Shown piece after piece: positions 3,554 through 29,887 of a stretch of DNA of 64,000 bases. Made by a program: the position numbers and the translations under genes. The notes below the pieces were generated by a model. The model made no database searches. It was not told the origin of the DNA and saw only the letters and a program-made list of their open reading frames with translations. Origin of the DNA: Candidatus Moraniibacteriota bacterium (GTDB lineage Bacteria > Patescibacteriota > Minisyncoccia > Moranbacterales > UBA1568); contig JAYRRF010000024.1 of NCBI GenBank assembly GCA_041910335.1, positions 18,529 to 82,528 on the forward strand. The letters run 5' to 3'. The stretch's first letter is position 1; every line of letters begins with the position of its first letter.

Positions 3554-3573
3554 GTGATAAAATACGAAAAATG

Positions 3574-3600: not shown

Positions 3601-3706
3601 TCTGGGTAGGAGACAAATAATAGGAGTAAACTCCTTGACAAACTCTATAGACAGTGTATGATTTGAAGGTTTTGGGGAAGGCCTCAGAACATTGGGAGGG
3701 TACTTT

Positions 3707-12657: not shown

Positions 12658-12668
12658 AGAAAATTTTC

Positions 12669-13733: not shown

Positions 13734-13744
13734 AGGGGAGAGTC

Positions 13745-13999: not shown

Positions 14000-14028
14000 A
14001 GGTGCTTGGTTATTTGGCTACTCTTCTT

Positions 14029-14048
14029 GTATACCATAGGGGGTATAC
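14029..14048. promoter_or_regulatory. Candidate CsoR-type operator: inverted repeat GTATACC-ATAGG-GGTATAC
   Basis: Perfect 7-bp arms around a G-tract, located 30 nt upstream of the repressor start. It resembles the B. subtilis CsoR operator ATACCnnnnGGGGTAT. Half-site-like GGGTATATAC and AGTATAC recur at 14062-14075 and 14099-14106. Confidence 0.6.
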
Positions 14049-14296
14049 TATAGTCAAGAGGAGAGGTAAAAAGGGTATATACTAAAAAGGTAAACAAATA
14101 GTATACAAATCTATGCATCAAGAAGACGAAATGAGTGAAGGCTACCCAGAGCAAGACCATCCAGAGCCTGGCGTTGTCTCAGTCAATGATGAGAGCTTTT
14201 CGGAAGGCGAGCTCCATATTCGCTACGAAGAGAAGCAGGCCGATATGGGTATTGATGAAGAGCGTCTTGCTGAGGAGTTCAGTGAACTTTAGAGCT

Positions 14297-14698
14297 ATGG
14301 ATACAAAAATGTGGTACATGCAGTTAGTCAAACCCGCCTGGGCACCGCCGAGCTATCTTTTCGGTCCCGTCTGGACGATTCTCTATGCTGTCATTGTTGT
14401 GACGTATGGGACTGTTCTCTACAAAGTCATCAAAGGAGAATGGCCGGCAGTTATCTTGATACCATTTGGACTCAACCTATTTTTCAACCTTATTTTTTCA
14501 CCCATACAGTTCGGCCTTCAGAATAACGTGCTTGCAAGTATCGATATTCTTCTGGTGCTCATGACTCTCATCTGGATGATTGTCACTATCTTTCCATACG
14601 CAAGATGGATTGCCTTTGCCAATGTTCCGTATCTTCTTTGGGTCGCTTTTGCTACTGTGCTTCAGTTAACGATTACGTATCTTAATTGGGGAAAGTAA
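14297..14698 (+). CDS. tspO: TspO/MBR-family tryptophan-rich sensory protein
   Basis: MWYMQLVKPAWAPPSYLFGPVWTILY signature plus 5 TM segments. Start is placed at the ATG at 14297; the ORF-track start at 14135 adds a non-homologous extension. Confidence 0.75.
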   Translation: MDTKMWYMQLVKPAWAPPSYLFGPVWTILYAVIVVTYGTVLYKVIKGEWPAVILIPFGLNLFFNLIFSPIQFGLQNNVLASIDILLVLMTLIWMIVTIFPYARWIAFANVPYLLWVAFATVLQLTITYLNWGK

Positions 14699-14756
14699 GT
14701 TGTATTTTTTCCAGGGGTTGCTATCATAGAGACATCTAAAATTTTTTATAAAAGTT

Positions 14757-17700
14757 ATGCAAAAGACTTTTGTTGGGGCAGTAGTTGTCTTGATGGGAGT
14801 CTTTTGTCTTTTTTCTTCGGCGGAGGCAGCAACGATTGTGAACGGAGCTCTGCCGGCAAGTACTACTTGGACAAAAGCGGGGAGTCCATACATAGCTACT
14901 GGTGTGACGGTGCCAGCTGGCATGATGCTTACTATTGAGCCAGGAGTTATCGTGAAGTTAAGAGGAACACAAGCTCTTTATTCAGCTGGTACTCTCAATA
15001 TAGGCGGGGATGGTGAGCCTGTGATCATCACGACTCAGAAAGATGATAGTTATGGTGGCGATACCAATAATGACGGATCAGCTACAGCGCCCTCTAAGTC
15101 AGACTGGTGTTATATTGGAGTACATACCAATGCTACTCTGATAGTCAAGAATACTCACATCTACTATGGAGGTTGCACTCCTACCTATGGTCAGTTGTAC
15201 AACTTCGGAGGAGTAATGGTGGTAGAGAATTCGCTTCTTACCAAGAGTGGACAGTTCGGTCTTTTAGCTGCCAGCGGTAACACCACTTTCCGCAACAACG
15301 AAGTGACGGGCAATGTTATCGGAGTGCGCTATCATAGTGGTACTCTGACTATGGAGGGAAATAGCATCCATGACAATCTCGAGTATGGTATGACCAATAC
15401 GTCGCTCGCTCATACAGTAGTAGACGCGCGCAATACCTGGTGGGGTGACACGACCGGACCACTCCATGTCACCACCAATCCGAATGGTCTCGGTAACAAG
15501 GTGTCGGACTATATTCTCTACACGCCCTGGAAAGACTGCTTCAATAACTGTGTATCGAATGTGATGTTTTTACCAGGCATCATGGGGACGAGACTGTACG
15601 GCACCGGTGACGAAGAGCTCTGGGTCTCGAGTAGTGATAGTAAGCAGGAGCGGATGGAGATGAACTCAGACGGTATCAGCAAACATGATATCTATACCAA
15701 GGATGACACGATGAGGGGGAACGAAATAGATGAGACAGGTATCGTTGATGATATCTATGGAGCTAACTTGTACCAGTCATTTCTTAATGACTTGCGTGAC
15801 TGGAAGACAGAAGGGGTGTATAGCGACTATGCTTTTATTCCCTATGACTGGCGTTTATCACTTGATGATATCGTCATGAATGGTCGAGTAGATGTATCAG
15901 GTAATCTCCGCTATACAGAGAACAATACAGACTTGACCCAGAGTTATCTTTACCAGAAGGCCAAAGCCTTACAGCTAAGCTCCAAGTCAGGTAAGATCAC
16001 TCTCATTGGACATTCCAATGGAGGGCTCGTCATCAAGGCCTTCGTCCAGAAATTGAAAGATGTGAATGATCCACTCTACCACACTATCGATAAAATCATC
16101 CTCGTCGGTGTACCGCAGACCGGGACACCTGACAGTATCGTGAGTATGCTCTACGGATCCAAGATCGGTATTGCTTGGCTCGGAGTCTCTGATAGACGCA
16201 CTCGCTCCCTCATCCATGATATGCCGACGATGTACAATCTTCTTCCGAGCGAGAGACTGTTTGATACTATCAACCCACCCATTGAATTCGTTGGAAGCAA
16301 TATCGACCCGAGTTGGACGAGTCGCTATGGTGAAAAAATTAATACCTATGGAGAGCTCCAAGATTTCCTCGGAGGCAGTGAAGGGAGAAGTCGACCAGAG
16401 TTTGCGGATACCTATGCACCAGAGGTGCTCAACCATAACATGCTCAGTCAAGCAGAGGGAGTTCATCAAGTGCTTGATAATTGGACGCCAGCTCCAGAAA
16501 CAGAAGTAGTGCAGATAGCTGGCTGGGGAATGTACACTGTGGCAGGGCTAAAAGTGACTGATGATAAGAAGTGTATCTTCAATAGCAACCAACTCATCGG
16601 CGGCAGACCGGTCTGTGTAGAGATCAGAGGAAGTGTCACAGTTGAGGATAAAATGACGCTCAATGGTGATGCAACAGTGCTCGTACAGAGCGCACATAAT
16701 ATTCCGGAGAGCGGGAATGTGAAGAAGTATTGGATTGATTTAGGTCGTTATAATACCAGAGCTTTCGTGCAGCGATTTATACCAGACACAAAACATAAAG
16801 ACGTTCTTGAAATGAATTCTATCCGTCCTTTCATAAAATCTCTCATTAATAAAAGTATCAGTACAGATTTTGACTATATTAGTTCTTTTGAGCCAGAACC
16901 CATTAATGATCCATACATTAAATATGACATCCACTCACCATTACATCTGACCGTCACTGATGCTAATGGACGAGTGGTCGGCTGGGACGCATCAAGCGGT
17001 GAGATAGTCGAGCACGTCAAGGGGGCGCAGTACTTCGAGATAGGAGAGAATAAGACTGTATTGATACCGAAAGCCACTCTGCACACTGTCCGACTCACTG
17101 CCTATGAAGAGGGGTCATTCACGCTCGGAGTGAGTGAGCTTTCTGGTGAGAGTGTCACGAGTGAGACGAAGTTCACCGCTATCCCGACTCTCGCTCACTC
17201 AGTAGTAGAGGTGACTCCAGCGACAGAGACAGTACCTCTCGGTATGCAGGTAGACTTCGATGCCGATGGTACAGTAGAGACGACGCTCGAGGCAGTGCCA
17301 GGAGAAGTGACAGAGTACGAAAATCCAGTCCCTCTTGATACGACGCCACCAGAGACGACACTCAGTCTTGATGGACCTGTAGGGATGAATGGTTGGTATA
17401 GAGGCGATGTACGCATCACTCTTACGACGGAAGAAGGTGCTACGACAGAATATTCACTTGATGGTGGTAGCTGGCAGACATATACTGAGCCGTTCACGGT
17501 TACTCGAGAGGGGATTACAGAGCTTCATTACCGCTCTATCGATGTGGCGAGGAATATAGAAGAGACTCAGTCAAGTGAGATCAAGATAGACATACTGCCA
17601 CCAGAGGCCAAGATAGGTTTCGATGTAGCCACTGGTACACTCAAGGTGGTTGGTCTACAGGAAGGTATTCAGGTGGAGTCTACTAGCATGACGTATCTTT

Positions 17701-18089
17701 TGACTGACCAGGCGGGCAATACTACAAGACTGATGTTCGGTAAGATCAAAGAAAAAGAAAAGAAAGAACAAGGGGAGTATATATTGCGAGCGCTCCAGTA
17801 TGACCAAGAGCCGGTGATCAACCTCAAAGATACGAACCTCAAGTATTTCTACAAAGGGGAGAAAAAGCGAGATGATGCTAAGGCATTCACTTCATCTCTA
17901 CGAACTCATACTCAGAGGCTTATCGCACACTATGTGAAGAAACGCAACCAGACATATATCATGGACAAAACAGAGAGTGAAGATGATGACCCGGAGACAT
18001 GCGAAAAGCGAAAGATAAAGAAGGTTTTATCAGGCCTCGTGGTACCATATATGGAGACAGAGAAGGGGAAAATAAATATTAAATATTAA
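14757..18089 (+). CDS. Large secreted multidomain protein (1110 aa): signal peptide, parallel beta-helix repeats, GxSxG lipase/esterase domain, C-terminal Ig-like domains
   Basis: Signal peptide MQKTFVGAVVVLMGVFCLFSSAEA. PbH1-like repeats (NNEVTGNVIGVRY, GNSIHDNLEYG). Lipase-type nucleophile elbow LIGHSNGGLVIKAF (PGAP1/DUF676-like). Chitobiase/Big-like C-terminal modules (YSLDGGSWQTYTEPFTVTREGITELHYRSIDVARN). Confidence 0.8.
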   Translation: MQKTFVGAVVVLMGVFCLFSSAEAATIVNGALPASTTWTKAGSPYIATGVTVPAGMMLTIEPGVIVKLRGTQALYSAGTLNIGGDGEPVIITTQKDDSYGGDTNNDGSATAPSKSDWCYIGVHTNATLIVKNTHIYYGGCTPTYGQLYNFGGVMVVENSLLTKSGQFGLLAASGNTTFRNNEVTGNVIGVRYHSGTLTMEGNSIHDNLEYGMTNTSLAHTVVDARNTWWGDTTGPLHVTTNPNGLGNKVSDYILYTPWKDCFNNCVSNVMFLPGIMGTRLYGTGDEELWVSSSDSKQERMEMNSDGISKHDIYTKDDTMRGNEIDETGIVDDIYGANLYQSFLNDLRDWKTEGVYSDYAFIPYDWRLSLDDIVMNGRVDVSGNLRYTENNTDLTQSYLYQKAKALQLSSKSGKITLIGHSNGGLVIKAFVQKLKDVNDPLYHTIDKIILVGVPQTGTPDSIVSMLYGSKIGIAWLGVSDRRTRSLIHDMPTMYNLLPSERLFDTINPPIEFVGSNIDPSWTSRYGEKINTYGELQDFLGGSEGRSRPEFADTYAPEVLNHNMLSQAEGVHQVLDNWTPAPETEVVQIAGWGMYTVAGLKVTDDKKCIFNSNQLIGGRPVCVEIRGSVTVEDKMTLNGDATVLVQSAHNIPESGNVKKYWIDLGRYNTRAFVQRFIPDTKHKDVLEMNSIRPFIKSLINKSISTDFDYISSFEPEPINDPYIKYDIHSPLHLTVTDANGRVVGWDASSGEIVEHVKGAQYFEIGENKTVLIPKATLHTVRLTAYEEGSFTLGVSELSGESVTSETKFTAIPTLAHSVVEVTPATETVPLGMQVDFDADGTVETTLEAVPGEVTEYENPVPLDTTPPETTLSLDGPVGMNGWYRGDVRITLTTEEGATTEYSLDGGSWQTYTEPFTVTREGITELHYRSIDVARNIEETQSSEIKIDILPPEAKIGFDVATGTLKVVGLQEGIQVESTSMTYLLTDQAGNTTRLMFGKIKEKEKKEQGEYILRALQYDQEPVINLKDTNLKYFYKGEKKRDDAKAFTSSLRTHTQRLIAHYVKKRNQTYIMDKTESEDDDPETCEKRKIKKVLSGLVVPYMETEKGKINIKY

Positions 18090-18095
18090 AATTGT

Positions 18096-18503
18096 ATGAC
18101 AAGAAAATCATCTTTACGTGGGAGTGTTTTGTTGACTGTTATTTTTGTAGCACTCCTTTTTTTAGAGGAGTCAGTAAAATCAAATTTTTGTGGATCACGC
18201 GACTTGTCTTGTTGGAGAAATTACAACTTAATATTAACAATATTATTACTAAGTCCTACTCTTCTCATCTCTTCCCTTGCATCACTAAAAGCCTCAGATG
18301 AAGCGTTCAGCAAATGGAAGAGTATGACACTGTACTTCATCCCAGCCTATCTCCTCATTGTTATTCTGACTCCGTGGGATATGGGCAATGCTATGGCGGG
18401 ACCAAGTCTTTCCAAGGGTATGGTCGCTTTGGCACTGTGTGTCATCTATCTTGTTTTCTCGGTATTCTACCTTCTCACCAAATCCAGCAGAAAAATCTCT
18501 TAG
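18096..18503 (+). CDS. Hypothetical small membrane protein
   Basis: ORF with 3-4 predicted TM helices in an AT-rich region. No recognisable motif. Confidence 0.35.
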   Translation: MTRKSSLRGSVLLTVIFVALLFLEESVKSNFCGSRDLSCWRNYNLILTILLLSPTLLISSLASLKASDEAFSKWKSMTLYFIPAYLLIVILTPWDMGNAMAGPSLSKGMVALALCVIYLVFSVFYLLTKSSRKIS

Positions 18504-18635
18504 CTTCTTAATAACAAAAAACAGTCCTTCTTTCGAGGGTTGTTTTTTTATCTTGATAACGCTATACTGATCAGTTCCTTAATAACTGCATAAAATCAGA
18601 TTGATTGAGAGAAATCCAGCAAAAGGACCGAAATC

Positions 18636-19397
18636 ATGGAACAGACACCAATTGAGGAAGCTGGCTCACCTCAAGCGGTGAGACCATGGACAGTAATGGG
18701 AATTCAGAAGTTAGTCGCCACATATTTCGGGGTAGAAGTCCTCGATCTCAAATCAAAGGCTCGAAGGAGAGCCGTCTCTCATCCCAGGCAGGTAGCTGTC
18801 TATCTCATCAAAAAGTTCTTTGGTGAGCGCTATAGCTATCCATGGATCGGGGGTAGGTTTGGCGGACGGGACCACTCGACGATGATTCATGCTTACCGAT
18901 GCATTGAAGAAGGGATCGGCAAGAATCCCACTTTGCATCATGACGTCATGACTTTGTGGCACCGCATCACTTTGCAAGGTCCGCCACAAGATGGTGTGGA
19001 TTTCGTGATAGAGCCGAAGGTCAGGCAAGAAAAGAGAGAACCTGATTTTCCTCAAGTAGTGGCAGTGAAAGTACCTGAATTACCAAGGCCAAAGCCCGTC
19101 TTGGCAAGCGCGGAGGTTCGCAGGGTAGTAGCTGATCACTACAGCGTAGAGATACGCTATCTTGAGGACATTCATGATGACGAATACTATCGGTTTTGTC
19201 GAGAAGTGCTGATATTCTTGCTCCAGTACCTCGAGCGACAAGGAGTTGTCATCGGGCATGACCAGTTCTGTGGCACAGAAGAAGAAAGGAGAAAGACCTA
19301 CCGGTACATCCACGGAGTATCGAGAGGAGACAGAGAAATTCGATCCGATATTGAAAGTATCTTGGCGACGCTGGACAAGCTCTCCATCATCCCATGA
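18636..19397 (+). CDS. Standalone DnaA C-terminal (domain IV, DnaA-box-binding HTH) protein with no AAA+ domain; second half looks like a degenerate repeat of the same domain
   Basis: Residues about 20-95 (IQKLVATYFGVEVLDLKSKARRRAVSHPRQVAVYLIKKF...IGGRFGGRDHSTMIHAYRCIEEG) match DnaA domain IV closely. The C-terminal stretch VRRVVADHYSVEIRYLEDI reiterates the start of that domain. GC is elevated. Confidence 0.7.
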   Translation: MEQTPIEEAGSPQAVRPWTVMGIQKLVATYFGVEVLDLKSKARRRAVSHPRQVAVYLIKKFFGERYSYPWIGGRFGGRDHSTMIHAYRCIEEGIGKNPTLHHDVMTLWHRITLQGPPQDGVDFVIEPKVRQEKREPDFPQVVAVKVPELPRPKPVLASAEVRRVVADHYSVEIRYLEDIHDDEYYRFCREVLIFLLQYLERQGVVIGHDQFCGTEEERRKTYRYIHGVSRGDREIRSDIESILATLDKLSIIP

Positions 19398-19422
19398 TAT
19401 TTCAGGTGCTTCAGTGAAGCGA

Positions 19423-19453
19423 TGGCAGCCCACCTCAAGAGGCTGCCTTTTTG
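19423..19453 (+). terminator. Rho-independent terminator
   Basis: GGCAGCC-cacctcaaga-GGCTGCC followed by TTTTT. Confidence 0.75.
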
Positions 19454-19471
19454 TTTCCCAAAATCAGAGTT

Positions 19472-19502
19472 TTCTACTTGGAGATCGAATCTCCAAGTAG
19501 AA
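19472..19502. repeat. Perfect 14-bp inverted repeat with 3-nt spacer (TTCTACTTGGAGAT-cga-ATCTCCAAGTAGAA)
   Basis: Verified by reading: the two arms are exact reverse complements and no T-run follows. It lies in the intergenic DNA after the DnaA-domain gene. Confidence 0.7.
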
Positions 19503-19614
19503 GTGAAGAGATGGCTGGAGATTGACGGGAGAAGGATTTTGCTTTAGGGTGAAGGCAAGAAGGAGGAGGGTGACACCCTCCTTTGCTGTTTAACAAAAGA
19601 AAGGACGCCTTGTC

Positions 19615-20517
19615 ATGGACATGATAGCGCATGCATCAACTGGTGCTTCCTCGCATGACCCTGACCAGGTCATCATCAAGCTCCAATATGAACAGGATGC
19701 CAAGTTGTATTGGCGACCAGAAGACTTGATTTATCACTTCGAGTATGACCTTCGAGATTTGTTTCATCGAGCTGGCCTTCGGGGAGTTCTCGAAGTCAAG
19801 CGTATCGGTCGTCGTGAACGTGGTATCGGCCAAGAGGGCATCGCCCTTGGTCACCCGCAGGATTTCGTCATCGAAATCAATGCCGAGTACGGTCAGCAGA
19901 ATAAGGGAAGGGCTGACGTTTGGTTCATCAAGGTGGACGCCAAGGATACGACTCCGATTCGGGAGCGTCTGACGCGCGCTTTGGCAGGAGAAAAACTTCC
20001 ATCAATACTCGAACCACCAGAAAAGCCTGAGTCGCAGCCGACTATTCCCGAAGAACCAGACGTGTCTACGGCTGATGTGCCGTGGCCTACGTTACCAGGG
20101 CAGGAAAGTTCTGTGAAGGAAGCTCTTTTTCGGCGAGATCCTCTGGGAATGACCTATTGCCTCGTGTTTTTGTGGGGTAGCGCTAACGCTGACAACCAGG
20201 TAGAAAGGGGCGTACTGACCAATATCGCCATGGAGTACTATCCAGAATTTCAGGATAAGCGCAAAACAACACCCATCCACAAGTCGTTTGGTCAAGAAGG
20301 CTTCCTCAGTCGCCTAGAAAGTGGCAACTACCAGCTTTTCCTTGAGCCCATCAAAGCCTTTGTATCAGAACATCACGATGCACTCATAGCATCACCGATG
20401 TTCTGGAAGAAAATCAAAAAGGTTGAAGGGCTTTCCCAGGGTAACCAAGGGAGGATGGCAACGCAGGAGGCGCTACGGGCAATTGAGCGCATCTATGATT
20501 TGATTTTGGAGAAATAA
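19615..20517 (+). CDS. Hypothetical protein (300 aa), high-GC island
   Basis: Long ORF with protein-like composition and no recognisable motif. A strong terminator follows. Confidence 0.5.
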   Translation: MDMIAHASTGASSHDPDQVIIKLQYEQDAKLYWRPEDLIYHFEYDLRDLFHRAGLRGVLEVKRIGRRERGIGQEGIALGHPQDFVIEINAEYGQQNKGRADVWFIKVDAKDTTPIRERLTRALAGEKLPSILEPPEKPESQPTIPEEPDVSTADVPWPTLPGQESSVKEALFRRDPLGMTYCLVFLWGSANADNQVERGVLTNIAMEYYPEFQDKRKTTPIHKSFGQEGFLSRLESGNYQLFLEPIKAFVSEHHDALIASPMFWKKIKKVEGLSQGNQGRMATQEALRAIERIYDLILEK

Positions 20518-20546
20518 ATAACATCCCAAATGGGATAAGGGCTGGA

Positions 20547-20582
20547 GGGCGGGACATCGAACCACGATGACCCGCCCTTTTT
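20547..20582 (+). terminator. Strong Rho-independent terminator (13-bp stem with one mismatch)
   Basis: GGGCGGGACATCG-aacca-CGATGACCCGCCC followed by TTTTT. Confidence 0.8.
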
Positions 20583-20672
20583 GCTTTTGTAAAAATATAT
20601 ACCAAAAGAGAAGAGCCGCTATCCGAATAGGACAGCGGCTCATTCTGTGGATCATTGATCCTGTTGGCTGGT

Positions 20673-21146
20673 TTAGCCCGAACATTCGTAGGACTTGCCA
20701 TCGTGTTCGGCAGCGGCCTCGTAACCGCGCCAGAGGTAGACGATCTGCGGTGAGCAGTCGTTACGCAGGCGATGGTCGCCAAGAGCCTTGCGGCGCTCAG
20801 CGAAGTCCTTGTGGTCGCGGGCGCTCTGTTCGAACGTGCCCCAGTCGTTATCGACCGTGAGTCTGTCGAAGACCTCCGGCCAGGCAGCTTTCACCACTCT
20901 TCGCCGTTCGGCAAAGATGGCCGCCTTTTCGTTCTCTGGGCAGAAAGTACCGCAAGCCACGAACTTGCGGAAGTTCCTTTCCACAGCCGGGTCTCGGCGT
21001 ACCAGCTCGCTGGCTAGGCTGCCGATGCGATCATCCATTATTCCCAAGCGGCTTCCGGGATAAACCCAGCTGCAGCCATTGGGCAGGATGATCAGGGTGA
21101 ATAGCAACAAGGCCGCTATTCCCAGGCTCAAGAGTACTTTCTTCAC
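20673..21146 (-). CDS. Secreted/membrane-anchored Cys-containing hypothetical protein, paralog of 40217..40762
   Basis: GTG start at 21146 with an AGGAGA RBS 7 nt upstream. Signal-peptide-like MKKVLLSLGIAALLLFTLIIL. Shares WP(E/L)VFDRL and RLRN(D/H)C blocks with the protein at 40217..40762. High GC. Confidence 0.55.
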   Translation of the reverse strand: MKKVLLSLGIAALLLFTLIILPNGCSWVYPGSRLGIMDDRIGSLASELVRRDPAVERNFRKFVACGTFCPENEKAAIFAERRRVVKAAWPEVFDRLTVDNDWGTFEQSARDHKDFAERRKALGDHRLRNDCSPQIVYLWRGYEAAAEHDGKSYECSG

Positions 21147-21201
21147 GCGCAATCTCCTCTGAAATGGCGTGAATAGTGTAGCACTCTTTTGAAAAAAGTC
21201 A

Positions 21202-21780
21202 ATGGACACCAAGAAGCACATTAAGAAGCAGTCGTCTCTCAAGAGGCAGCTTCAGCAGCTTGGCAAGTCAGTCGATGGTGTGGAGGAGGCTTACCGCCAA
21301 ATCCGCGAAGTGGCTGATCTTCACCATCATGCCAAGTCTGGTGGCTACGAAAAAGCACTGGGCCGAGCAGGTACCGCTATCCGCAGTGCCCGTGAGGTGG
21401 TGGAACATGAAGATGCTGGTGTCAACGCTCGAGGTATGATCACTCGGGCAAACAATGCCAAGACCGACGCCGTCAGCATGGCGCATCAGCCGAAGCCTGA
21501 CTGGATCGGTGCCATGATGACGCTTGATGCAGTAAGCGAGCTTGCTCGCCAAGCACAGGCCGAGGCAGAGCGTGATATCGGTTCAGCCGAAGAAGCTCGT
21601 CAAAGAGCAGCTCGCCGTCGTCGCGATGAAGAAGATCGTCGTCGCCGACAACGGGACGATGATTCTTCCGATGACGGATACGGTGGAGGCAGATCTTCGT
21701 CGTCCAATTCTTCAGGAGGCGTTTTTGGCGGTTTCGGCGGGGGCAACTCTGGTGGTGGTGGCGCTACCGGTAGCTGGTAG
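21202..21780 (+). CDS. Hypothetical protein with Arg/Asp-rich and Gly/Ser-rich C-terminal tail
   Basis: ORF in the high-GC island. C-terminus reads RRRRDEEDRRRRQRDDDSSDDGYGGGRSSSSNSSGGVFGGFGGGNSGGGGATGSW. A long hairpin terminator follows. Confidence 0.45.
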   Translation: MDTKKHIKKQSSLKRQLQQLGKSVDGVEEAYRQIREVADLHHHAKSGGYEKALGRAGTAIRSAREVVEHEDAGVNARGMITRANNAKTDAVSMAHQPKPDWIGAMMTLDAVSELARQAQAEAERDIGSAEEARQRAARRRRDEEDRRRRQRDDDSSDDGYGGGRSSSSNSSGGVFGGFGGGNSGGGGATGSW

Positions 21781-21815
21781 GCTCGACCCTCTAGTCGAGT
21801 AAATGTGTGTACCTT

Positions 21816-21856
21816 GGGGAGGTGGCTTCAGCTGAAGCTACCTCCCTCTCTTTTTA
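21816..21856 (+). terminator. Rho-independent terminator (long palindromic stem)
   Basis: GGGAGGTGGCTTCAG/CTGAAGCTACCTCCC followed by TCTCTTTTT. Confidence 0.75.
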
Positions 21857-21866
21857 TCCGGAGGCA

Positions 21867-21901
21867 TACTTTTTGCTTTTGTAGAGGGGAAAGAGTAGAA
21901 T
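21867..21901 (+). promoter_or_regulatory. Copy 1 of a 35-nt duplicated promoter element (TTGCTT-17-TAGAAT) upstream of the DUF3800 gene
   Basis: TACTTTTTGCTTTTGTAGAGGGGAAAGAGTAGAAT. -35 TTGCTT at 21873-21878 and -10 TAGAAT at 21896-21901. ATG at 21909, so the transcript would be near-leaderless. Confidence 0.6.
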
Positions 21902-21908
21902 TTTAGGT

Positions 21909-22553
21909 ATGAATACACCACAATCAACAAAACAATTAGTATTTATTGATGATTCGGGTGATCCTGGCTTTAAGTTGGAACAGGGTTCTACGAGCCACTT
22001 TGTAATAGCATGCGTGATTTTTGATGATACTTTAGATGCTGAGGAAGCAGCCTTGATAATAAAAAAGTATAGGCGCGAGCTTGGCTGGTCTGACCAGCGA
22101 GAGTTTAAGTTTAACAAAACAAATAAAAAGCTGATCAAAGAGCTTTTAGAAAGATTGCAAGGCGTAGGTTTTCGGGTGAGGGCAATTTGTATTGATAAAA
22201 AAAGAATCTATAGTCATGAGCTCAAAAATAAGCAAGACTCTTTCTATAACTACGCTATCAAGGAAGTTTTGGAAAAAACAAAAACTCTCAGTCATGCTAG
22301 CGTAAAGCTCGATGGGCATTCTGGACGTACCTACAAAAAATCAGCCATCACTTATTTGCGGAGAGAGGTAAATAAAAAATCATCAAAAATAGCGAAGGTA
22401 AAGTTTGTCCATTCTCATTCAGATGTGCTTATTCAGCTCGCTGACCTAGTAGCAGGAGCTATACTGAGATCTACTCAAGAGACTAAAACTGACCATAAAG
22501 ACTACCTTCAAATTATCCAAAAAAAAGTAGAAGATGTTTGGTATTTTGGATAA
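21909..22553 (+). CDS. DUF3800-family protein
   Basis: N-terminal LVFIDDSGDPGF motif characteristic of DUF3800. Low GC. Confidence 0.6.
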   Translation: MNTPQSTKQLVFIDDSGDPGFKLEQGSTSHFVIACVIFDDTLDAEEAALIIKKYRRELGWSDQREFKFNKTNKKLIKELLERLQGVGFRVRAICIDKKRIYSHELKNKQDSFYNYAIKEVLEKTKTLSHASVKLDGHSGRTYKKSAITYLRREVNKKSSKIAKVKFVHSHSDVLIQLADLVAGAILRSTQETKTDHKDYLQIIQKKVEDVWYFG

Positions 22554-22679
22554 AATCAAAACCGACTCCTATCCTAGATGTCCTAGGCACGCACACCATA
22601 CGGTGACAGTTCAGAGCCGGTTTCATTTGTACTGGAATTATAGCATCTGAAGGGTTTTTGTCAAGGTACCAAGAAACGG

Positions 22680-22714
22680 TACTTTTTGCTTTTGTAGAGG
22701 GGAAAGGGTAGAAT
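22680..22714 (+). promoter_or_regulatory. Copy 2 of the 35-nt duplicated promoter element (TTGCTT-17-TAGAAT) upstream of the PLD-SNF2 gene
   Basis: TACTTTTTGCTTTTGTAGAGGGGAAAGGGTAGAAT, 34/35 identical to copy 1. -35 at 22686-22691, -10 at 22709-22714. ATG at 22743. Confidence 0.6.
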
Positions 22715-22742
22715 AGGGGTATATTTTCCTAATTTTAGACTC

Positions 22743-25700
22743 ATGTCTTACTCTAAGATTATTGACAATAAAAGGGTGTCCTTGAAGGATGTTCTTTTAG
22801 ACGTATCGAAAAACTTTTCTGAACTCTCAATTGCCACTGGTTATTGGGATATTGAGGGCATGAGGTTGGTTCTGAATTCAATAAAGGAGTATAAAAAAGT
22901 CCGTATCCTTATAGGAAGAGAGCCTTTACTGAAGAGAGATAATAAGACCGGTATCGATCAACCTGAACCAGACTATCCAGATCAGGATTTTTTTGAAGAT
23001 CTTCAAAGAATCAGCCCTTCTTCGGAATTAAAGCAAGTTGTTATAGCGTTGAAAAAACTGATCGACAACGGTCAGTTAGAGGTAAAAGTATATCGCAGGT
23101 CATTTTTACATGCAAAATGCTACATTTTTGGAAATTATGAGTCAACGGAAGCAGTAGGAATCATTGGTTCTTCGAATTTTACTAGAAATGGCATGACCTC
23201 TAACTCTGAATTAAATTCACTCGAATCAGATCATCGAGTAGTTGCATTTAGACCACAGACTGAACAGCAAGAAGTTGGACATTTATATTGGTTCGATAAT
23301 CTTTGGGATGATGCACTGACGGAGGATTGGACAGGAAAATTTATCGAATTAGTACGTACCTCACCACATGGTGATCTTTTGAATAGTCCTCGTGATATGT
23401 ATTTACGTACACTCTATGAGCTTTATCGTCATGAAATTGAACAGGAAGAGGAGGACATTATTAATCCTACCTCGAAAAAACTTTTTGAATTTCAAGAAAA
23501 AAATGTCAAAAATTTAAAGAGAATTTTAGATACTTACGGAGTTGCCATGCTAGCTGATTCGGTAGGGCTTGGTAAAACTATTTCTGCAATGGGCGTGATT
23601 AAACAATATAAAAATCAACGCGTAGTTGTTATTGCACCAAAAACGCTTGGTCAACAATGGGAGCAAGAGTTAGCTCAAGAGGATCTTCATAATGTCCGGG
23701 TTGTTTCTTTACAAAACAGACAAGAGATTGAAGAGCAGATAAATATTGATCAGTACAGCTCACCAGCACTCTTTGTGATTGATGAATCTCATAACCTCCG
23801 ATCCAACAATGGAACACGTTATGAATTGATTTCAGATTGGATTTCGAGCTCGTACAATGAAGAATCACATGTGCTGCTTTGTACAGCTACCCCAATCAAT
23901 AACTCGCTTACTGATCTTACGAGTCAAATTCTTCTTGGCGCACGTGGAGATCAGGATATTTTTACTTTGGCCGTTAAGACATACGGAGGACAAGTGGTGA
24001 CGAGGTCTTTTTATGAAGCCATTGATAATATAAGAAAACGTATTCAGCAAGATATTGCTCAGGGAGGAGAGAACTTAGAAGAAATTTATTTGGAGGCTCG
24101 TATTACCTTGGAGCCTATTATTCGTAATTTTGTAGTACGCAATACTCGTCAAAGTATCGGTTCATTGATTTCAGAGAATGGTGATGTACAAAATTTCCCA
24201 GAAGTAAAGATCAACAACACTAAATATCAGCCAGTACAGGTGCCACTTACCATCAGTGAACGACATCAGAAAATAACAAGTCATTCTATTGAGCAATTAG
24301 CTGATACGATGGATCGACTTAAGCATCCTATGCGTCAGATTGATGATCTTGATGTTGAGGGTGTTGCTCCCGAAAATGCAAACTCAATTTATCGTATATA
24401 CCAGCTGATTCTTGGGCTCTCGTTTGTGCCGTATCGGTGGTATATGTATGACTTTAGGCTTTATGATAAGACGAGAGATGAGTTGAGAAATATGCGCTTG
24501 TCTGGCTCCGACCTGATGAAAATCAATATGCAATTGAGCCTTTATGGAATCATGAGAACGCTTTTCTTGAAGCGCTTAGAATCATCAGCGTATGCTCTGG
24601 AAGTTTCATTGAAACGATACTTAAATCGATTGCAAGTATTTGAGCAGATTCTTCGTGATGAAAATATAATTATCAACCTCTCCGAAGTTGCCGATATCTT
24701 AGATGAGTATTCTCCAGATGACGGAGACCAGATTACTTATTCGACAGAGGAATTGTTGGAAAAGGCTCGCAAAAATCCAGAAGAAGTAGATAAGAATTTT
24801 AATAAGACAGTGCTACTTGAAGATATCCATATAGAGAAAGATCTTATCTCTGAAATCATTGGTCTTGTGGCTACCATAAAATCTACAGATCCAAAAATTA
24901 AAGATTTAAAGAGAAAATTAAAGGATTCGTATAGAGAAGATCCAGCCAAAAAGATACTCATCTTTACTTTTTTTGCTGACACTATAGATTACATTGAAAA
25001 AGAATTAGGGACTGATCCTGATATGAAGGAAGTTTTTAATCAGTCAGCTTTTGTTTCAGGAAGGGACAGAAGGCATGCTCTGCACTGTGCAAATCGTTTT
25101 GCTCCAGAAGCCAAGGGCGCGCAAAGTCTCGTAGCAGAAGAAGGTGAAATTACTTATCTTTTTGCTACAGATGTTCTTTCGGAAGGTCAAAACTTGCAAG
25201 ATTGTGGAGAGATTATCAATTATGATCTTCACTGGAATCCGGTGCGCATGGTACAGCGCAATGGTCGTATCAATCGATTGGGTACCAAACATGAAACAGT
25301 GTGGGTTGATAATTTTGTGCCAGGTGATGATCTGGAGCTCTTTTTGGGTATCATGGATCGATTAAACAAAAAGATTGAATTGATTAAACATGCTATAGGA
25401 AATGACTCTTCTATTTTTGGAGAAACTATAGATGCACGTAGCTACACAGATCTTTATAGTGATGATGCAAATAGAGCCTCGATTGCTTATGATCAACTTG
25501 AGACAAGTATAGACGCCTTTTCTGACGATATCTTTTTGAAAGATCTTAAGCACTTTCTAAAAAAAGCTACAGATGAAGAAATTCGTCAAATGAAGCGTAT
25601 CCCGTATGGATCATGGGGGATTGTACCTCAAGGTCTTACTGATCCCAATGATGTGATTCTGTTTTCCAAATTAGCGTATACAAACGGGATTACAAAAAAT

Positions 25701-26168
25701 ATTTTCTTTGGAAATGATAGAGAGGCTTTTGGAATAGGAATTATTCAAAATACCTTAGCATTGCAAATGCTTCGTTCTAGTTTGGAAGATAAGCCGTTGG
25801 ATACAATTTTGTTAGACAAAGAAAAGCAAATTCAAACCATGTTTCGCAGGGGACCCCAAATTGCCAGAGATACGAATGTAGATAGTTCACTGACTCCTAC
25901 CAAGGAAAGAGTATTGAACGAATCAAGGGTATACGGATGGAGTGCCGAAGAAATAGACAAATTACGTTCCACTCTTTCTACACGCAATGTAAATCTTGGA
26001 CGAAAAGTTAGTCGTATTGTTCGACTTATCAATGCAGCTATCAAAGAAAATATTTCAACAGAAAGTTATTATAGAGATCTCAAGAAGCTTTTAGTGGAAC
26101 CTTCTGAATCAGCGATGGTGACGGATGTACAGTTTTTGCTTGGGTATACTGATCATTACTCACGATAA
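22743..26168 (+). CDS. Phospholipase-D-family (HKD) nuclease fused to an SNF2-family SF2 helicase (1141 aa); restriction/defense-type
   Basis: N-terminal single HKD motif: FLHAKCYIFGN...GIIGSSNFTRNG. Helicase motifs: I LADSVGLGKT, II VIDESHNLRS, III LLCTATP. A long insert follows, then C-terminal motifs V LFATDVLSEGQNLQ and VI HWNPVRMVQRNGRINRLG. Confidence 0.85.
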   Translation: MSYSKIIDNKRVSLKDVLLDVSKNFSELSIATGYWDIEGMRLVLNSIKEYKKVRILIGREPLLKRDNKTGIDQPEPDYPDQDFFEDLQRISPSSELKQVVIALKKLIDNGQLEVKVYRRSFLHAKCYIFGNYESTEAVGIIGSSNFTRNGMTSNSELNSLESDHRVVAFRPQTEQQEVGHLYWFDNLWDDALTEDWTGKFIELVRTSPHGDLLNSPRDMYLRTLYELYRHEIEQEEEDIINPTSKKLFEFQEKNVKNLKRILDTYGVAMLADSVGLGKTISAMGVIKQYKNQRVVVIAPKTLGQQWEQELAQEDLHNVRVVSLQNRQEIEEQINIDQYSSPALFVIDESHNLRSNNGTRYELISDWISSSYNEESHVLLCTATPINNSLTDLTSQILLGARGDQDIFTLAVKTYGGQVVTRSFYEAIDNIRKRIQQDIAQGGENLEEIYLEARITLEPIIRNFVVRNTRQSIGSLISENGDVQNFPEVKINNTKYQPVQVPLTISERHQKITSHSIEQLADTMDRLKHPMRQIDDLDVEGVAPENANSIYRIYQLILGLSFVPYRWYMYDFRLYDKTRDELRNMRLSGSDLMKINMQLSLYGIMRTLFLKRLESSAYALEVSLKRYLNRLQVFEQILRDENIIINLSEVADILDEYSPDDGDQITYSTEELLEKARKNPEEVDKNFNKTVLLEDIHIEKDLISEIIGLVATIKSTDPKIKDLKRKLKDSYREDPAKKILIFTFFADTIDYIEKELGTDPDMKEVFNQSAFVSGRDRRHALHCANRFAPEAKGAQSLVAEEGEITYLFATDVLSEGQNLQDCGEIINYDLHWNPVRMVQRNGRINRLGTKHETVWVDNFVPGDDLELFLGIMDRLNKKIELIKHAIGNDSSIFGETIDARSYTDLYSDDANRASIAYDQLETSIDAFSDDIFLKDLKHFLKKATDEEIRQMKRIPYGSWGIVPQGLTDPNDVILFSKLAYTNGITKNIFFGNDREAFGIGIIQNTLALQMLRSSLEDKPLDTILLDKEKQIQTMFRRGPQIARDTNVDSSLTPTKERVLNESRVYGWSAEEIDKLRSTLSTRNVNLGRKVSRIVRLINAAIKENISTESYYRDLKKLLVEPSESAMVTDVQFLLGYTDHYSR

Positions 26169-29100
26169 TGAATTACGATCAAATCAATCAACAATTAGAG
26201 ACAATACGCAAAACTAAAAACATTGAAGATGTGCAGTCTTTGGTGTGTCTTTTGCTTGAGCCGCTAGGTATTGTAGGATGCAAGCCTGAAGAATTACTTA
26301 ATCATAGCTCGGTACAACGTGAATTTTCTCGTTTCATGCCCGCACAAGGGTTCAGAGATCGAGCTGCTGCTTATACCATCAAACATACGTCGGATTTGCC
26401 GGTAGATATCAAACTCTACTGGATCAAAAAAACCACCAAAGCCAATCTTTCATGGCTCATGGCTCTTACTCCTAATTACGAAGACAACCCAGAGATTAAT
26501 ACCTCTATGAATCTGGGCATCGATATTATAGTTTCAGAGAATTGTGAAAGTATCTATCTGGTACTTTCAAGTATGCTCAAAGTTCGAGTATTGGAGTTAA
26601 ATGGGGTTCTCTCTCATACTCAGAGAGAAATACTTGAGAACTGGCAGAAAATAGGTTCTACTACAGATTCTCAATCAGAGAACTTCAAGCAAGAATTGCA
26701 TAAACTTCTTTGGAAGAGTTTTGACTTTGAGCCGATCAACCGTAAATTCTATCAAGAACTTGTCACACAGTTTGATCATCTAGTCCTTCATCTCAAGCCT
26801 ATAGTTGGGGAGGCATCGGCCAAGATGTTTGCAGTGAGGTTTATCGGAAGAACACTCTTTTTGTGGTTTCTCCGCAAAAAGGATTTTATCAATCCAGAGA
26901 AAGAATACTTCAATGTTTCAGGAAGTGATGATCAGAGTCTTTACTACCATTCCAAGTTAGAATCATTGTTTTTTGAGGTGCTCAACACTGAGGTAAAATC
27001 ACGTAGTTTTGATGATTTTGTGACTCCATTTCTTAATGGAGGGCTATTTGAGCCAATAGAAACAGATTTTTATAGGGATGAGAAGCTGACTTTTCCAGAA
27101 GGATTCTTCACTCAGTTCTTTGATGTCCTTAATCGCTATAATTTCACCGTAGATGAGGGTACTTCTGAGTATGAGCAAGTGGCGGTGGATCCAGAAATGT
27201 TGGGACGAGTATTTGAGAATCTCCTCGCTTCTATCAATGATGAGACAGGCGGGCAGGCCCGTAAGTCTAAAGGAGCTTTTTATACACCTCGTGAGATTGT
27301 GGACTATATGTGCAAGCAGTCTCTCATAGAGTATTTAAAAACAAAGCTTCCAGATACCGCTAATCGAGATCGTCGTATAGAAGAACTTGTCACTATGGAC
27401 GAGGCCACATTTCGTGATCAGGATCACAACAAGCGTCGTGACTGGAAGAAAGATCTTGGTCAAGAGACTGTACTAAAAGCCCTTGATGAATTACGTATCC
27501 TTGATCCGGCAGTTGGGTCGGGCGCTTTTCCTATGGGTATGCTGAATCTCTTGGTCAAGGTCTATACACGTATTGATACTAGCAGAGAGAAAGATCTTGC
27601 TACGCTCAAAAGAGAAATTCTTTCTCGATCGCTCTATGGTGTAGATATAGATCAGATGGCTATACAGATTAGTCGTCTCCGAGCCTGGCTTTCTATTTTG
27701 GTAGATATGGAGAGTCTCAAAAAAATTGATCCGCTGCCAAACCTAGACTTCAAGTTTGTTTGTGCTAATACGTTGATAGCCCTTGATGAAGGGCCAAATA
27801 GTTTATTTGATACTGATATAGAACTCAAAAAACATTTGATAGATCTTAGGGATAAGTACTACGCTGCTACACGTAAGGTAGACAAAGGGAAAATTAGAAA
27901 AGAATATCTATTTTCTATTCAAAAGGGAGGCGAATTATTCGCTTCCAAAAGAGAATTGCAGTTGAGGGATTATAATCCTTTTAATCCTCTTAATTCTACC
28001 AATTTCTATGATCCTGAACTCATGCACGGAGTGGAGAGTTTTGATGTCGTGATAGGTAATCCGCCATACGTGCAGCTTCAAAAGTTTGCCCGTACTCAAA
28101 TTCAGAAAGATTTAGAGAATGAAAAATACCAAACCTTTGCAAAAACAGGAGATTTATACGCTCTCTTTTACGAAAAAGGATTGAATCTTACCAGTCTAGA
28201 TTCAGGTTTGCTCTGTTACATTACGAGCAACAAGTGGATGAGGGCGGGGTATGGCGAAAGTCTTCGTAGATATTTTGTGCAACACAATCCGCTTCTTTTG
28301 CTAGATTTAGGAAGTGGTGTGTTTGAGAGTGCTACGGTAGATAGTAATATTTTATTGATTCAGAATACCTTAAATAAAGGAGAAACAAAGGCAGTCACGA
28401 TTAAGGATAATAAGAAAAGTTTTTCTACTCAGTTGCAAGAACATGGATCAGTGGTAAATTTTGATTCAAGTGGTCCGTGGTTTATTGGTACTCAAGTAGA
28501 GATTAATCTAAAAAATAAAATTGAGACAAATGGAAAACCTCTTAAAGATTGGGATGTTTCAATTAACTATGGTATAAAGACCGGCCTTAATGAAGCTTTT
28601 ATTATTAATCAGGAAAAACGAGATGAGTTGATTGCTCAGGATCTAAAAAGTGAAGAAATTATTAAGCCTATTTTGCGAGGAAGGGATATAAAGAGATATT
28701 CCTACAATTTTTCAGGTCTATATTTGTTAATGACAGGTTTTGATTTTGACATTCCAGTGGAATACCCTGTCGTTTTTAATCATCTGAAGCAGTTTGAAGA
28801 AAAGGCAAAGAAAAGAGATGATCAGGGTAAAAATTGGTGGAATTTGAGAGCATGCGTTTATTATGATGAGTTTGAAAAAGAAAAAATAGTATGGGGAAAT
28901 ATAGCATACAATTCCACTTTTTCAGTGCTAGGTAGTAGCTATTACTTAAATGCTCCTGGAAACCTTATAACTTCTAATTCCACTAGTTTAAAGTTTTTGT
29001 TAGGTTGTTTAAATTCGAAAATATTCAATTGGGAATTCAAAAAAGAAGGTATATTTTTAGGGAATGCTTATGAATGGAAGAAGCAGTATGTAGAACAGAT

Positions 29101-29287: not shown

Positions 29288-29291
29288 TGTC

Positions 29292-29846: not shown

Positions 29847-29887
29847 GGACAGGGGGGTATTGTTAAAATTGATGGTCTTAAAAATAT

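Follow-up and report, generated by a model that had tools for sequence, protein, structure and literature searches.

The window analysed here, a 64-kb stretch of bacterial DNA, contains a low-GC island that begins at a 35-nt promoter-like element and extends to just beyond the gene behind a third, diverged copy of it. Upstream of the island, gene 19615-20517 ends at an intrinsic terminator (20547-20591, forward strand; stem GGGCGGG...CCCGCCC, then a T-tract), and a truncated TPM_phosphatase remnant (21202-21780), homologous to the C-terminus of a 676-aa TPM gene in the syntenic relative L002, precedes a second terminator (21816-21856, forward strand; a hairpin of 14 pairs, 8 of them GC, with a T-tail, found by a terminator scan). 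Copy 1 of the element follows just downstream (21867-21901, forward strand) and consists of a T-tract, a candidate -35 hexamer TTGCTT (21873-21878), a 17-nt spacer and a candidate -10 hexamer TAGAAT (21896-21901). A weak hairpin (22663-22685) lies ahead of copy 2 (22680-22714, forward strand; -35 at 22686-22691, -10 at 22709-22714), and the T-tract of this hairpin forms the beginning of the repeat. As left and right direct repeats, the two 35-mers enclose a 778-bp cassette (21902-22679), which holds a DUF3800 gene and a convergent small RNA gene and no DUF3800 promoter of its own. The earlier note on this DNA had overlooked this bracketing.

The genes behind copy 2 form a restriction-type operon on the forward strand: a PLD(HKD)-SNF2 helicase-nuclease gene (22743-26168; Pfam PLDc_2, SNF2-rel_dom and Helicase_C), whose product matches PADLOC HKD+Snf2 (C3a139, 7.8e-50) and DrmD-like entries, then a Type IIG-like restriction/methyltransferase fusion (26168-29287; Pfam Eco57I, N6_Mtase, TaqI_C and MmeI_Mtase; PADLOC REase_MTase_IIG, 692 bits). 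Two low-GC cargo ORFs of 190 and 155 aa come next (29274-30355, forward strand); they belong to no confident family and give one weak match, to REase-ARP (E 0.004). Beyond them lies the diverged third member of the promoter family with a ribosome-binding site, AAAGAGGTAA (30606-30651, forward strand; TTGTTT-17 nt-TAAAAT). This third copy (30606-30640) matches copy 1 at 23/35 positions and precedes a Zn-ribbon gene (30662-30925).

The enclosed cassette and its repeats

The DUF3800 gene (21909-22553, forward strand) encodes a 214-aa protein of an RNase H-fold nuclease family (Pfam PF12686, E 2e-16, 61.4 bits against a cut-off of 21). The protein also matches the PADLOC candidate PDC-M04A (E 2.9e-14, 51 bits), only the PDC-M04A component being considered. 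Residues D14, D15, E65, D135, Q176 and D179 are invariant among 36 relatives, and these conserved acidic and QxxD residues are the DUF3800 motif described in PMC7736814. The small RNA gene (22555-22623, reverse strand) is of the DUF3800-IX type: it covers positions 1-67 of the 67 in Rfam model RF02968, with 65.2 bits against a gathering score of 36.8, and its 3' end reaches to within 1 nt of the DUF3800 stop codon. It is 66/69 identical in L002, and nhmmer finds a match in the same position and orientation at nearly all of 80 related loci, many of the weaker ones with E > 0.01. Its predicted promoter (TTGACA-16 nt-TGcTATAAT, 22637-22664, reverse strand) scores 12/12 with an extended -10 and is the sole 12/12 site that the promoter scan returned in 18-32 kb. 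As in a type I toxin-antitoxin module, two convergent genes abut at their 3' ends; here, however, the protein is a 214-aa member of a nuclease family rather than a short hydrophobic peptide toxin, and its RNA partner is conserved and structured, not a simple antisense.

The earlier note had reported the 35-mer twice in the window, and this stands: the copies are identical at 34/35 positions, the only mismatch (A/G) being at position 28, and none of 100 dinucleotide shuffles produced a match. Both copies contain TTGCTT-17-TAGAAT, also as claimed. That a -10 box lies upstream of both ORFs is likewise correct, while the distances need adjustment, the gap to the ATG being 7 nt for DUF3800 (21909) and 28 nt for PLD-SNF2 (22743); the figures of 8 and 29 nt given previously count the offset from the -10 box to the ATG. 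Taking as sigma-70-type a pair of -35 and -10 hexamers spaced by 16-18 nt, the 35-mer agrees with the E. coli consensus at 3/6 positions in TTGCTT and 5/6 in TAGAAT (8/12 in total) at a spacing of 17 nt, and neither copy is listed by the consensus promoter scan, whose threshold is 9/12. By the E. coli consensus, both copies are thus modest as putative promoters. The hexamers and spacing are nevertheless conserved: TTGYTT-17-TARAMT is kept in 6/6 copies of two genomes (the window and L002), the -10 box being TARAAT in 5/6 and TAAACT in L002 copy 3. The conserved spacer reads GAGGGGAAAG. A -10-like box lies 4-10 nt before the ATG in 38/70 DUF3800 family members, against 17% of random positions. 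With hexamers and 17-nt spacing conserved and the distance from -10 to ATG typical of the family, the view that the 35-mers behave as a promoter family is supported by sequence. A leaderless DUF3800 mRNA would start from copy 1, and the PLD-SNF2/methyltransferase operon would have copy 2 as its promoter.

The earlier note had allowed that the 35-mer might prove widespread upstream of unrelated genes. It did not: TTGNTT-N17-TANAAT occurs only at the three island sites within 64 kb, and a generic promoter consensus of the organism is therefore rejected. An exact search for the 21-mer core, which diverged copies would escape, found none among 185,579 species genomes and none in JGI metagenomes, and the degenerate family pattern has no match in IMG/VR.

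A third, partial promoter copy had also been proposed, a 15-mer at 20577-20591. The recurrence itself is real: the 15-mer CTTTTTGCTTTTGTA occurs exactly three times in the window (20577, 21869 and 22682), where chance would give 0.27 matches with up to 2 mismatches and 0 shuffles reached 3. Its reading as a promoter copy does not hold, the sequence at 20577 being the T-tract of the terminator of gene 19615-20517; the genuine third family member is 30606-30640. This terminator is identical in the near-identical strains L084 and L085, and its orthologue in L002 has a different tail, CCCTTTTCATTTTTAATAC, so that the 15-mer is not conserved there. We rejected the 15-mer as an island boundary because it is a terminator T-tail, is flanked by conserved convergent core genes and is absent from the L002 terminator; the terminator at 20547-20591 is probably not part of the cassette system. 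As a side observation, the 15-mer matches L002 copy 1 over 19-20 nt.

Comparison with the syntenic relative L002

L002 shows the same layout with a different restriction-modification (R-M) operon behind copy 2. Conservation with the window begins sharply at copy 1, which in L002 (9959-9995) keeps hexamers and spacing and has a different spacer sequence, and homology stops about 10-13 nt past the -10 box of copy 2. Copy 2 itself is 35/37 identical to L002 10774-10810, with unrelated genes downstream. Copy 3 belongs to a block of about 50 nt common to L002 (17316-17365) and about 80% identical, on both sides of which, the gene behind included, the two genomes are unrelated. Since copies 2 and 3 (95% and about 80%) exceed the 38-66% identity of the flanking core proteins, the elements are either constrained or recently exchanged. 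The earlier suggestion that the repeats mark junctions is borne out insofar as copies 2 and 3 are kept in L002 while the genes behind them differ; the portable-module reading attached to it is weighed below as a rival. The two genomes differ in one further respect: copies 1 and 2 are 76% identical and differ in the spacer in L002, against 97% in the window, where copy 1 carries a spacer of the copy-2 type.

Within this lineage no cassette-free relative was found among L002, L001 and L085, all of which carry the cassette. A search of 5.8 billion proteins with a flank protein gave only 2 homologs, from the same organism and from L002, and a metagenome scan with this protein gave one 1.4-kb strain fragment. 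Over window positions 10527-22914 the Logan assembly L085, made independently, matches at 100% identity and contains both copies and the 15-mer, and a fragment of a second strain, L001, has copy 1 with a few SNPs; an assembly artefact is therefore excluded.

DUF3800-IX cassettes in other genomes

Homology between unrelated genomes is limited to the cassette: it sets in at about -7 to -21 relative to the ATG and extends through the RNA promoter. Flanking direct repeats border 14/56 DUF3800-IX cassettes from other phyla, against 14/239 neighbouring genes (6%; odds ratio 5.4, p 8.6e-5), three quarters of the related cassettes having none. The repeats are unrelated local sequence from locus to locus, 16-126 nt long and in many cases only 81-93% identical, and the right repeat always begins 129-216 nt after the DUF3800 stop codon. 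At L049 and L081 the relic copy retains the reading frame. Such imperfect, length-variable repeats with in-frame relics fit homologous-copy recombination as well as duplication by a staggered cut. Promoter-type repeats recur in L075, L077 and L060, ending at the -10 box in L077 and L060; in L075 they flank a cassette ahead of a Type III R-M operon.

The clearest case of insertion is L081, where alaS is followed by a 28-nt repeat, the cassette, the repeat again and a 125-aa gene. In four relatives of L081 (L095-L098) alaS is directly joined to the 125-aa gene, and by this comparison the L081 cassette is shown to be an insertion. At L025 the repeat is the 3' end of a tRNA-Gly (21/21). Targeting of tRNA genes as a rule was rejected, about 5 of about 65 loci having a tRNA within 250 nt. 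Neither transposase, integrase nor terminal inverted repeats were recognised, the insert encoding only DUF3800 and the RNA, and comparison of the junctions by eye found no shared end motifs. Guidance of the insertion by the RNA was also rejected: in 14 loci the RNA (taken as the region from stop codon to right repeat) has no complementarity to the repeats, the one match being a terminator hairpin. Carriage by phages or plasmids was rejected too, as IMG/VR and INPHARED gave no relatives and PLSDB gave only two 25%-identical matches. Copy counts are at contig level: the fetched cassettes are nearly all on separate contigs, with the exceptions of L023/L024 (one contig) and L099 (two DUF3800 genes). 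In all, there are roughly 1,700 DUF3800-IX homologs.

The DUF3800 genes of the closest relatives are found between hsdM and hsdS or inside or adjoining R-M operons, and the cassettes occur in or directly ahead of R-M operons of three types. Such placement makes it plausible that DUF3800 and restriction-modification are functionally linked. An association across all phyla was rejected, R-M neighbours being found at 6/69 loci in a crude tblastn with ten R-M proteins, and it is only in the closest clade that the association stands out clearly. Arrays of repeat-separated cassettes were seen near DUF3800 cassettes in L055, L037, L053 and L082.

Possible origin of the duplicated putative promoter and comparison with known systems

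We propose, with a probability of about one half, that insertion or recombination of the cassette duplicated a promoter, so that copy 1 would now drive DUF3800 and copy 2 the restriction operon. A sigma-70-type promoter (T-tract, TTGCTT, 17 nt, TAGAAT) would first have served the downstream restriction-modification-type operon. The cassette, to judge from its relatives, would then have settled directly behind the -10 box, and the promoter would have been doubled in the process, either by target duplication at insertion or by recombination between cassette-borne promoter copies. Copy 1 would start a leaderless DUF3800 mRNA, copy 2 would still start the PLD-SNF2/Type IIG operon, and the small RNA would be transcribed from the opposite strand toward the DUF3800 3' end. 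Recombination between the repeats would leave an excised or empty allele consisting of GGAGGCA, one 35-mer and AGGGGTATATTTTCC, and a circle with the junction CAAGAAACGG, one 35-mer and TTTAGGTATGAAT. On this view the element at 30606 belongs to the same promoter family and is older. Set against the 76% of L002, the 34/35 identity in the window points to what may have been a recent re-insertion or gene conversion. Simple target duplication does not account for copy 3, nor for cargo that differs exactly behind copies 2 and 3.

It is possible, if somewhat doubtful, that the 35-45-nt element is instead a portable promoter or junction at which island cassettes are exchanged, by homologous or site-specific recombination including circular intermediates with one copy, and that the duplication is part of a promoter-led array in which DUF3800, the R-M cargo and the Zn-ribbon gene are each led by an element. 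That the window and L002 alike have three family members per island would be expected of such an array, as would the varying cargo behind well conserved copies 2 and 3, the stretch of conservation from copy 1 to about 10 nt past copy 2 between more diverged flanking proteins, the coincidence of the low-GC island with the span between copy 1 and a point shortly beyond the copy-3 gene, and the repeat-separated arrays in other genomes. The family has, however, been found in two genomes only, and neither its exact 21-mer core nor its degenerate pattern turned up in the genome, metagenome and viral collections scanned; none of the island genes scanned was recognised as a recombinase, the element has no attC-like fold (z -0.3 to -0.6), and selection for expression alone could place foreign genes behind an existing promoter.

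That two long-standing paralogous promoters have lately been made alike by gene conversion, perhaps because selection favoured equal regulation of DUF3800 and the R-M operon, and with no connection to the arrival of the cassette, appears improbable. Such a history would suit the contrast between 76% identity in L002 and 97% in the window, as well as the copy-2-type spacer of window copy 1, but it leaves the enrichment of flanking repeats in unrelated genomes and the empty-site case unexplained; gene conversion fits the proposed promoter duplication better as a later step than as an alternative origin. Chance similarity or an assembly artefact can be given hardly any weight: a T-rich promoter-like element is expected to show some intergenic resemblance, yet none of the 100 shuffles matched, the independent assembly is identical, and L002 and L001 have the same arrangement. 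A more radical version of the insertion scenario, which we consider speculative and rather unlikely, holds that DUF3800 and the DUF3800-IX RNA are by themselves enough for mobility, as a minimal cassette in which an RNase H-fold enzyme, with a structured RNA as cofactor, inserts itself without a classical transposase or integrase. It would target terminator/promoter junctions, gene ends and tRNA ends and leave long target duplications and, if this were true, the 35-mer pair of the window would be its footprint.

Integrated mobile elements may be bracketed by direct repeats of host sequence, the target-site duplications or att-type repeats. The cassettes resemble them in that repeats of local sequence directly flank the insert (in the window and in the 14/56 cassettes), and also in the empty sites of the four L081 relatives and the tRNA 3' end matched in L025. 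They differ in that the DUF3800-IX repeats are long and variable in length, often imperfect and present at only about a quarter of the cassettes, and in that the cassettes are without a recognised integrase, transposase or terminal inverted repeats.

In integrons, gene cassettes are promoterless ORFs that lie behind a platform promoter and are separated by attC sites. A promoterless ORF of cassette size directly behind a promoter is likewise found in the window, repeated elements border variable cargo, and some relatives lie in arrays of repeat-separated cassettes; in the window, however, the repeated element is itself the putative promoter. The 35-mer has no GTTRRRY/RYYYAAC core pair, an attC-like structure was rejected because it folds no better than its shuffles, and the 20 ORFs scanned (11.5-37.3 kb) include no IntI-type integrase domain. 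The EcoprrI Type I R-M operon contains an embedded gene for the anticodon nuclease PrrC, and the position of DUF3800 between hsdM and hsdS in relatives is similar in that a stand-alone nuclease gene lies in or beside R-M operons; DUF3800 differs in belonging to an unrelated protein family and in having a dedicated small RNA.

The DUF3800-associated RNA motifs, DUF3800-I to -XI, were described in 2017 by Weinberg et al. (PMC5737381), and the window RNA is likewise structured, lies beside a DUF3800 gene and matches RF02968 over its full length. The available text of that paper offers no function for these motifs and does not describe flanking repeats, insertion polymorphism or placement in R-M operons, which, within the limited sampling here, come from the present analysis of DUF3800-IX cassettes. 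As far as this text goes, eleven motifs have been without a functional hypothesis since 2017 (PMC5737381), and the window locus and its relatives now give three handles. The DUF3800-IX cassette, about 0.8 kb long and sharply delimited, unites a putatively leaderless nuclease gene and a convergent small RNA. Its presence in or ahead of three types of R-M operon suggests an accessory or back-up role for restriction. It behaves as a discrete insertion, often with target duplication, and in the window the duplicated target is a putative promoter. With both copies as promoters, the nuclease and the restriction system would share one promoter sequence, the duplication wiring them to the same control sequence.

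DUF3800 has also been reported as an effector or accessory protein in retron type VII and in Cas12a2/Cas13 loci (PMC7736814, PMC10910872, PMC12669027). These loci resemble ours in combining a DUF3800 domain, with conserved DE...QxxD residues, with an RNA component in a defence context. Neither a reverse transcriptase nor CRISPR-Cas was found among the island genes scanned for families; the partners in the window are instead the DUF3800-IX RNA and the restriction operon.

A DUF3800 and RNA cassette between two copies of a 35-mer

The 35-mer TACTTTTTGCTTTTGTAGAGGGGAAAG[A/G]GTAGAAT is present at 21867-21901 (copy 1) and 22680-22714 (copy 2) with 34 of 35 positions identical, as the earlier note had it, and its first part, the 15-mer CTTTTTGCTTTTGTA, does recur at 20577-20591. 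The repeat is real: 100 dinucleotide-preserving shuffles gave 0 matches to the 35-mer, in a Logan assembly from a different sequencing run (L085) the stretch 10527-22914 is 100% identical, all three sites included, and copy 1 plus the DUF3800 gene recur, with a few SNPs, on an 883-bp contig of a second sample (L001). A repeat finder returned a third, diverged copy at 30606-30640 (copy 3, 23/35), and within the 64 kb the pattern TTGNTT-N17-TANAAT matches copies 1, 2 and 3 only.

While the observation of a duplicated promoter-like element stands, the cassette that it brackets had been missed. The 778 bases between the copies (21902-22679) hold the DUF3800 gene (21909-22553; Pfam 2e-16; PADLOC candidate PDC-M04A) and, on the opposite strand, a DUF3800-IX RNA gene (22555-22623; Rfam RF02968, full-length match, 65.2 bits vs a gathering score of 36.8), whose 3' end is one base away from the DUF3800 stop codon. 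The RNA gene has a predicted promoter of its own on the minus strand (22664 to 22637; TTGACA, 16 nt, TGcTATAAT), the sole 12/12 sigma-70 promoter in the region. Because no promoter for DUF3800 was found within 21902-22679, and the segment starts 7 nt ahead of the ATG, immediately past the copy-1 TAGAAT, what the repeats enclose is a compact cassette of gene plus RNA. GC-rich hairpins of differing sequence directly precede the T-tract of the right repeat in the window (22663-22685), in the syntenic relative L002 (10757-10773) and at the right junctions of two other loci (L077 and L075), so the start of the right repeat serves at the same time as terminator tail for the DUF3800 transcript. The DUF3800 RNAs have been known since 2017 and were reported without a hypothesis on function (PMC5737381). 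DUF3800 itself is considered a nuclease of RNase H fold and occurs as an effector of type VII retrons and as an accessory of Cas12a2/Cas13 (PMC7736814, PMC10910872, PMC12669027), and its acidic and QxxD residues are invariant among 36 relatives.

Outside the species, the DUF3800 protein most similar to that of the window (85% identical) is encoded on GCA_018499985.2 (L002), where the gene order is that of the window: TspO, LCAT-like, a 297-aa gene, TPM_phosphatase, the island, DUF1153, MFS and META. L002 has three elements as well, upstream of DUF3800 (9959-9995), after the RNA gene (10774-10810) and at 17316-17352, and TTGYTT, a 17-nt spacer and TARAAT are kept in 6/6 copies of the two genomes (one reads TAAACT). 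Copy 2 is 35/37 identical between them, and this homology ends about 10-13 nt past the -10 box. The operons that follow are unrelated: a PLD(HKD)-SNF2 protein, a Type IIG-like restriction/methyltransferase fusion (PADLOC 692 bits) and two ORFs without assigned function in the window, a Type III-like methyltransferase and a helicase in L002. Copy 3 forms a conserved block of about 50 nt (putative promoter and ribosome-binding site) with both flanks unrelated and different genes following, in the window a small Zn-ribbon gene; in L002 a RhuM/Fic gene directly precedes it. In both genomes the elements are conserved while the cargo that they border varies. Copies 1 and 2 of L002 are 76% alike and differ in the spacer, and copy 1 of the window has a spacer of the copy-2 type. 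Since the flanking core proteins are 38-66% identical vs 85% for DUF3800 and 66/69 for the RNA, the elements are either under selection or recently exchanged.

Flanking repeats and neighbours of the DUF3800-IX family

A further 80 loci of the DUF3800-IX type were taken from species-representative genomes. Almost all gave an nhmmer match to the RNA directly downstream of and convergent to the gene, although many of the weaker matches lie above E 0.01. Between unrelated genomes only the cassette is homologous at the nucleotide level, starting at about -7 to -21 ahead of the ATG and ending with the RNA promoter. The flanks were compared by blastn (600 nt upstream vs 800 nt downstream, E < 1e-3, deduplicated): flanking direct repeats are enriched in the family, with 14/56 cassettes vs 14/239 similar-sized neighbouring genes (odds ratio 5.4, p 8.6e-5), and earlier versions of the test pointed in the same direction. 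The distance from the stop codon to the start of the right repeat is always 129-216 nt, which places the repeat just past the RNA promoter. The repeats of different cassettes are mutually unrelated, being local sequence of varied kinds: terminator tails with promoters (L077, L060, where the repeat ends at the -10 box; L075, whose cassette precedes a Type III R-M operon), the 5' end of the following gene's coding sequence (L043), the 3' end of the preceding gene's coding sequence (L005, L049, L081) or the 3' end of a tRNA-Gly (L025, 21/21). The L025 cassette directly follows tRNA-Gly(GCC), with the perfect 21-nt tRNA 3'-end repeat on its far side (9804-9888, 10831-10851), and the L013 cassette abuts a tRNA-Thr 3' end, the tRNA being on the other strand (3535-3610); tRNA adjacency is only occasional in the family.

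One clean insertion polymorphism was found. In L081 the cassette separates alaS from a convergent gene of 125 aa. The 28-nt repeat on either side of the cassette consists of the final seven codons of alaS, its stop codon and AAAAA. In four relatives (L095-L098, AlaRS 85-88% identical) alaS is followed within about 20 nt by the 125-aa gene, then ftsA, without a cassette; in this family member at least, the cassette is a discrete insertion with target duplication.

In the closest relatives of the window's DUF3800 (71-85% identical; eight look-ups), the gene is within or beside a restriction-modification (R-M) operon: between hsdM and hsdS of Type I operons (L086, L087-90, L091, L099, L100-102), directly upstream of hsdM (L005) or upstream of Type III genes (L002). 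A more distant relative (L075, about 48% identical) is directly upstream of a Type III operon, and a crude tblastn search gave R-M neighbours at 6/69 more distant loci. The association is firm for the window's clade only. The Type I operon of L099 (7001-9503) reads hsdM, DUF3800, RhuM/Fic, DUF3800, hsdS.

The fetched cassettes are nearly all on different contigs, the exceptions being L099, with its two DUF3800 genes, and L023/L024 (CALCZR010000058.1, 14 kb apart), whose copies share 94% identity across about 1.24 kb. In L023/L024 the duplicated block takes in the end of a large gene for a secreted protein and the start, encoding the signal peptide, of the gene after it, which suggests that paralogous neighbours underwent a segmental duplication rather than that the cassette transposed cleanly. 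The L079 and L083 cassettes, from MAGs labelled Gammaproteobacteria and Falkowbacteria (different phyla), are 95.7% identical over 885 bp (about -117 to +767 from the gene start) between unrelated flanks, reflecting either recent transfer or a binning error; their common block begins exactly at the T-tract after two differing terminator hairpins. Arrays of short genes with repeated 35-150-nt spacers adjoin or include a DUF3800 cassette in Patescibacteria, Nitrospirota and Gammaproteobacteria MAGs (L055, 2500-11000; L037, 13000-16000; L053, 1-4200; L082, 7500-9700). They resemble integron-type cassette arrays, and some spacer elements have hairpins such as GTTAGAT-N9-ATCTAAC.

Putative promoter function and origin of the duplication

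Three points favour promoter function of the 35-mer copies: (i) hexamers and spacing are conserved, the spacer being free in copies 1 and 3, (ii) every copy precedes a transcription unit, and (iii) 38/70 non-redundant DUF3800-IX loci have, vs 17% at random positions, a -10-like hexamer whose end is 4-10 nt ahead of the start codon, frequently TATAAT at 6 nt. The arrangement TAGAAT, 7 nt, ATG is compatible with a leaderless mRNA. However, the -35 hexamer (TTGCTT) matches at 3/6 positions, the extended -10 is absent and a consensus scan listed neither site. As promoters, copy 1 would drive a leaderless DUF3800 mRNA and copy 2 the restriction operon, a co-regulation that, like the promoter activity and the insertion mechanism, we infer.

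We give a probability of about 0.5 to a promoter duplication linked to insertion, in which the 35-mer would have been duplicated when the cassette arrived, or when a unit bearing one promoter copy recombined. More tentative is a broader reading, in which the 35-mer would be a portable promoter or junction element in an array of cassettes. The two are not exclusive, as serial insertion at one promoter-bearing site, duplicating the promoter each time, would generate exactly such an array. The 35-mer shows neither folded structure nor attC core sites, and no complementarity was found between the RNA region and the repeats. Plain staggered-cut duplication does not account for copy 3, for the exchanged cargo behind copies 2 and 3, for the variable, often imperfect repeats or for the in-frame relic copies (L049, L081). 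Recombination between homologous copies, such as Campbell-type integration of a circle with one copy, fits all of these at least as well. The boldest reading, in which DUF3800 and its RNA would be a self-mobilising unit, draws direct support from the repeats and the single empty-site case only. The ORFs scanned included no integrase or transposase, viral and phage collections held no relatives and plasmids distant ones only. The finding is of more interest than a duplicated promoter alone.

Surroundings of the island

GC content is 0.53 at 20-22 kb and 0.34-0.40 at about 21.9-31 kb, against a background of about 0.45. The 15-mer had been taken as a third partial copy. It starts at the final C of the stem GGGCGGG...CCCGCCC and makes up the T-tract in the terminator behind gene 19615-20517; we treat it as a terminator tail and not as an island boundary, since the next two genes are conserved core genes and the orthologous terminator of L002 has another tail. 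It is kept in the near-identical strain L084, is exactly identical to the start of the 35-mer and matches copy 1 of L002 over 19-20 nt.

The 192-aa ORF at 21202-21780 is the truncated remnant of a 676-aa TPM_phosphatase gene (cf. L002 7850-9880). L084 departs from the window at about 21205 and retains the upstream promoter region as in L002, so the remnant marks a strain-level deletion polymorphism. Between the last cargo ORF and copy 3 (30356-30605), a short ORF (MKKYKIFQST...) seems continued in another frame to a Cys-rich end (...CSQCKRKWTGF) and may be a frameshifted small gene. Finally, repeated motifs at 1109-3312 and 44729-47196, in two sets (25-87 nt, 62-88% identical), resemble Walker and signature motifs from a pair of double-ABC ATPase genes, which may be UvrA-like paralogs.
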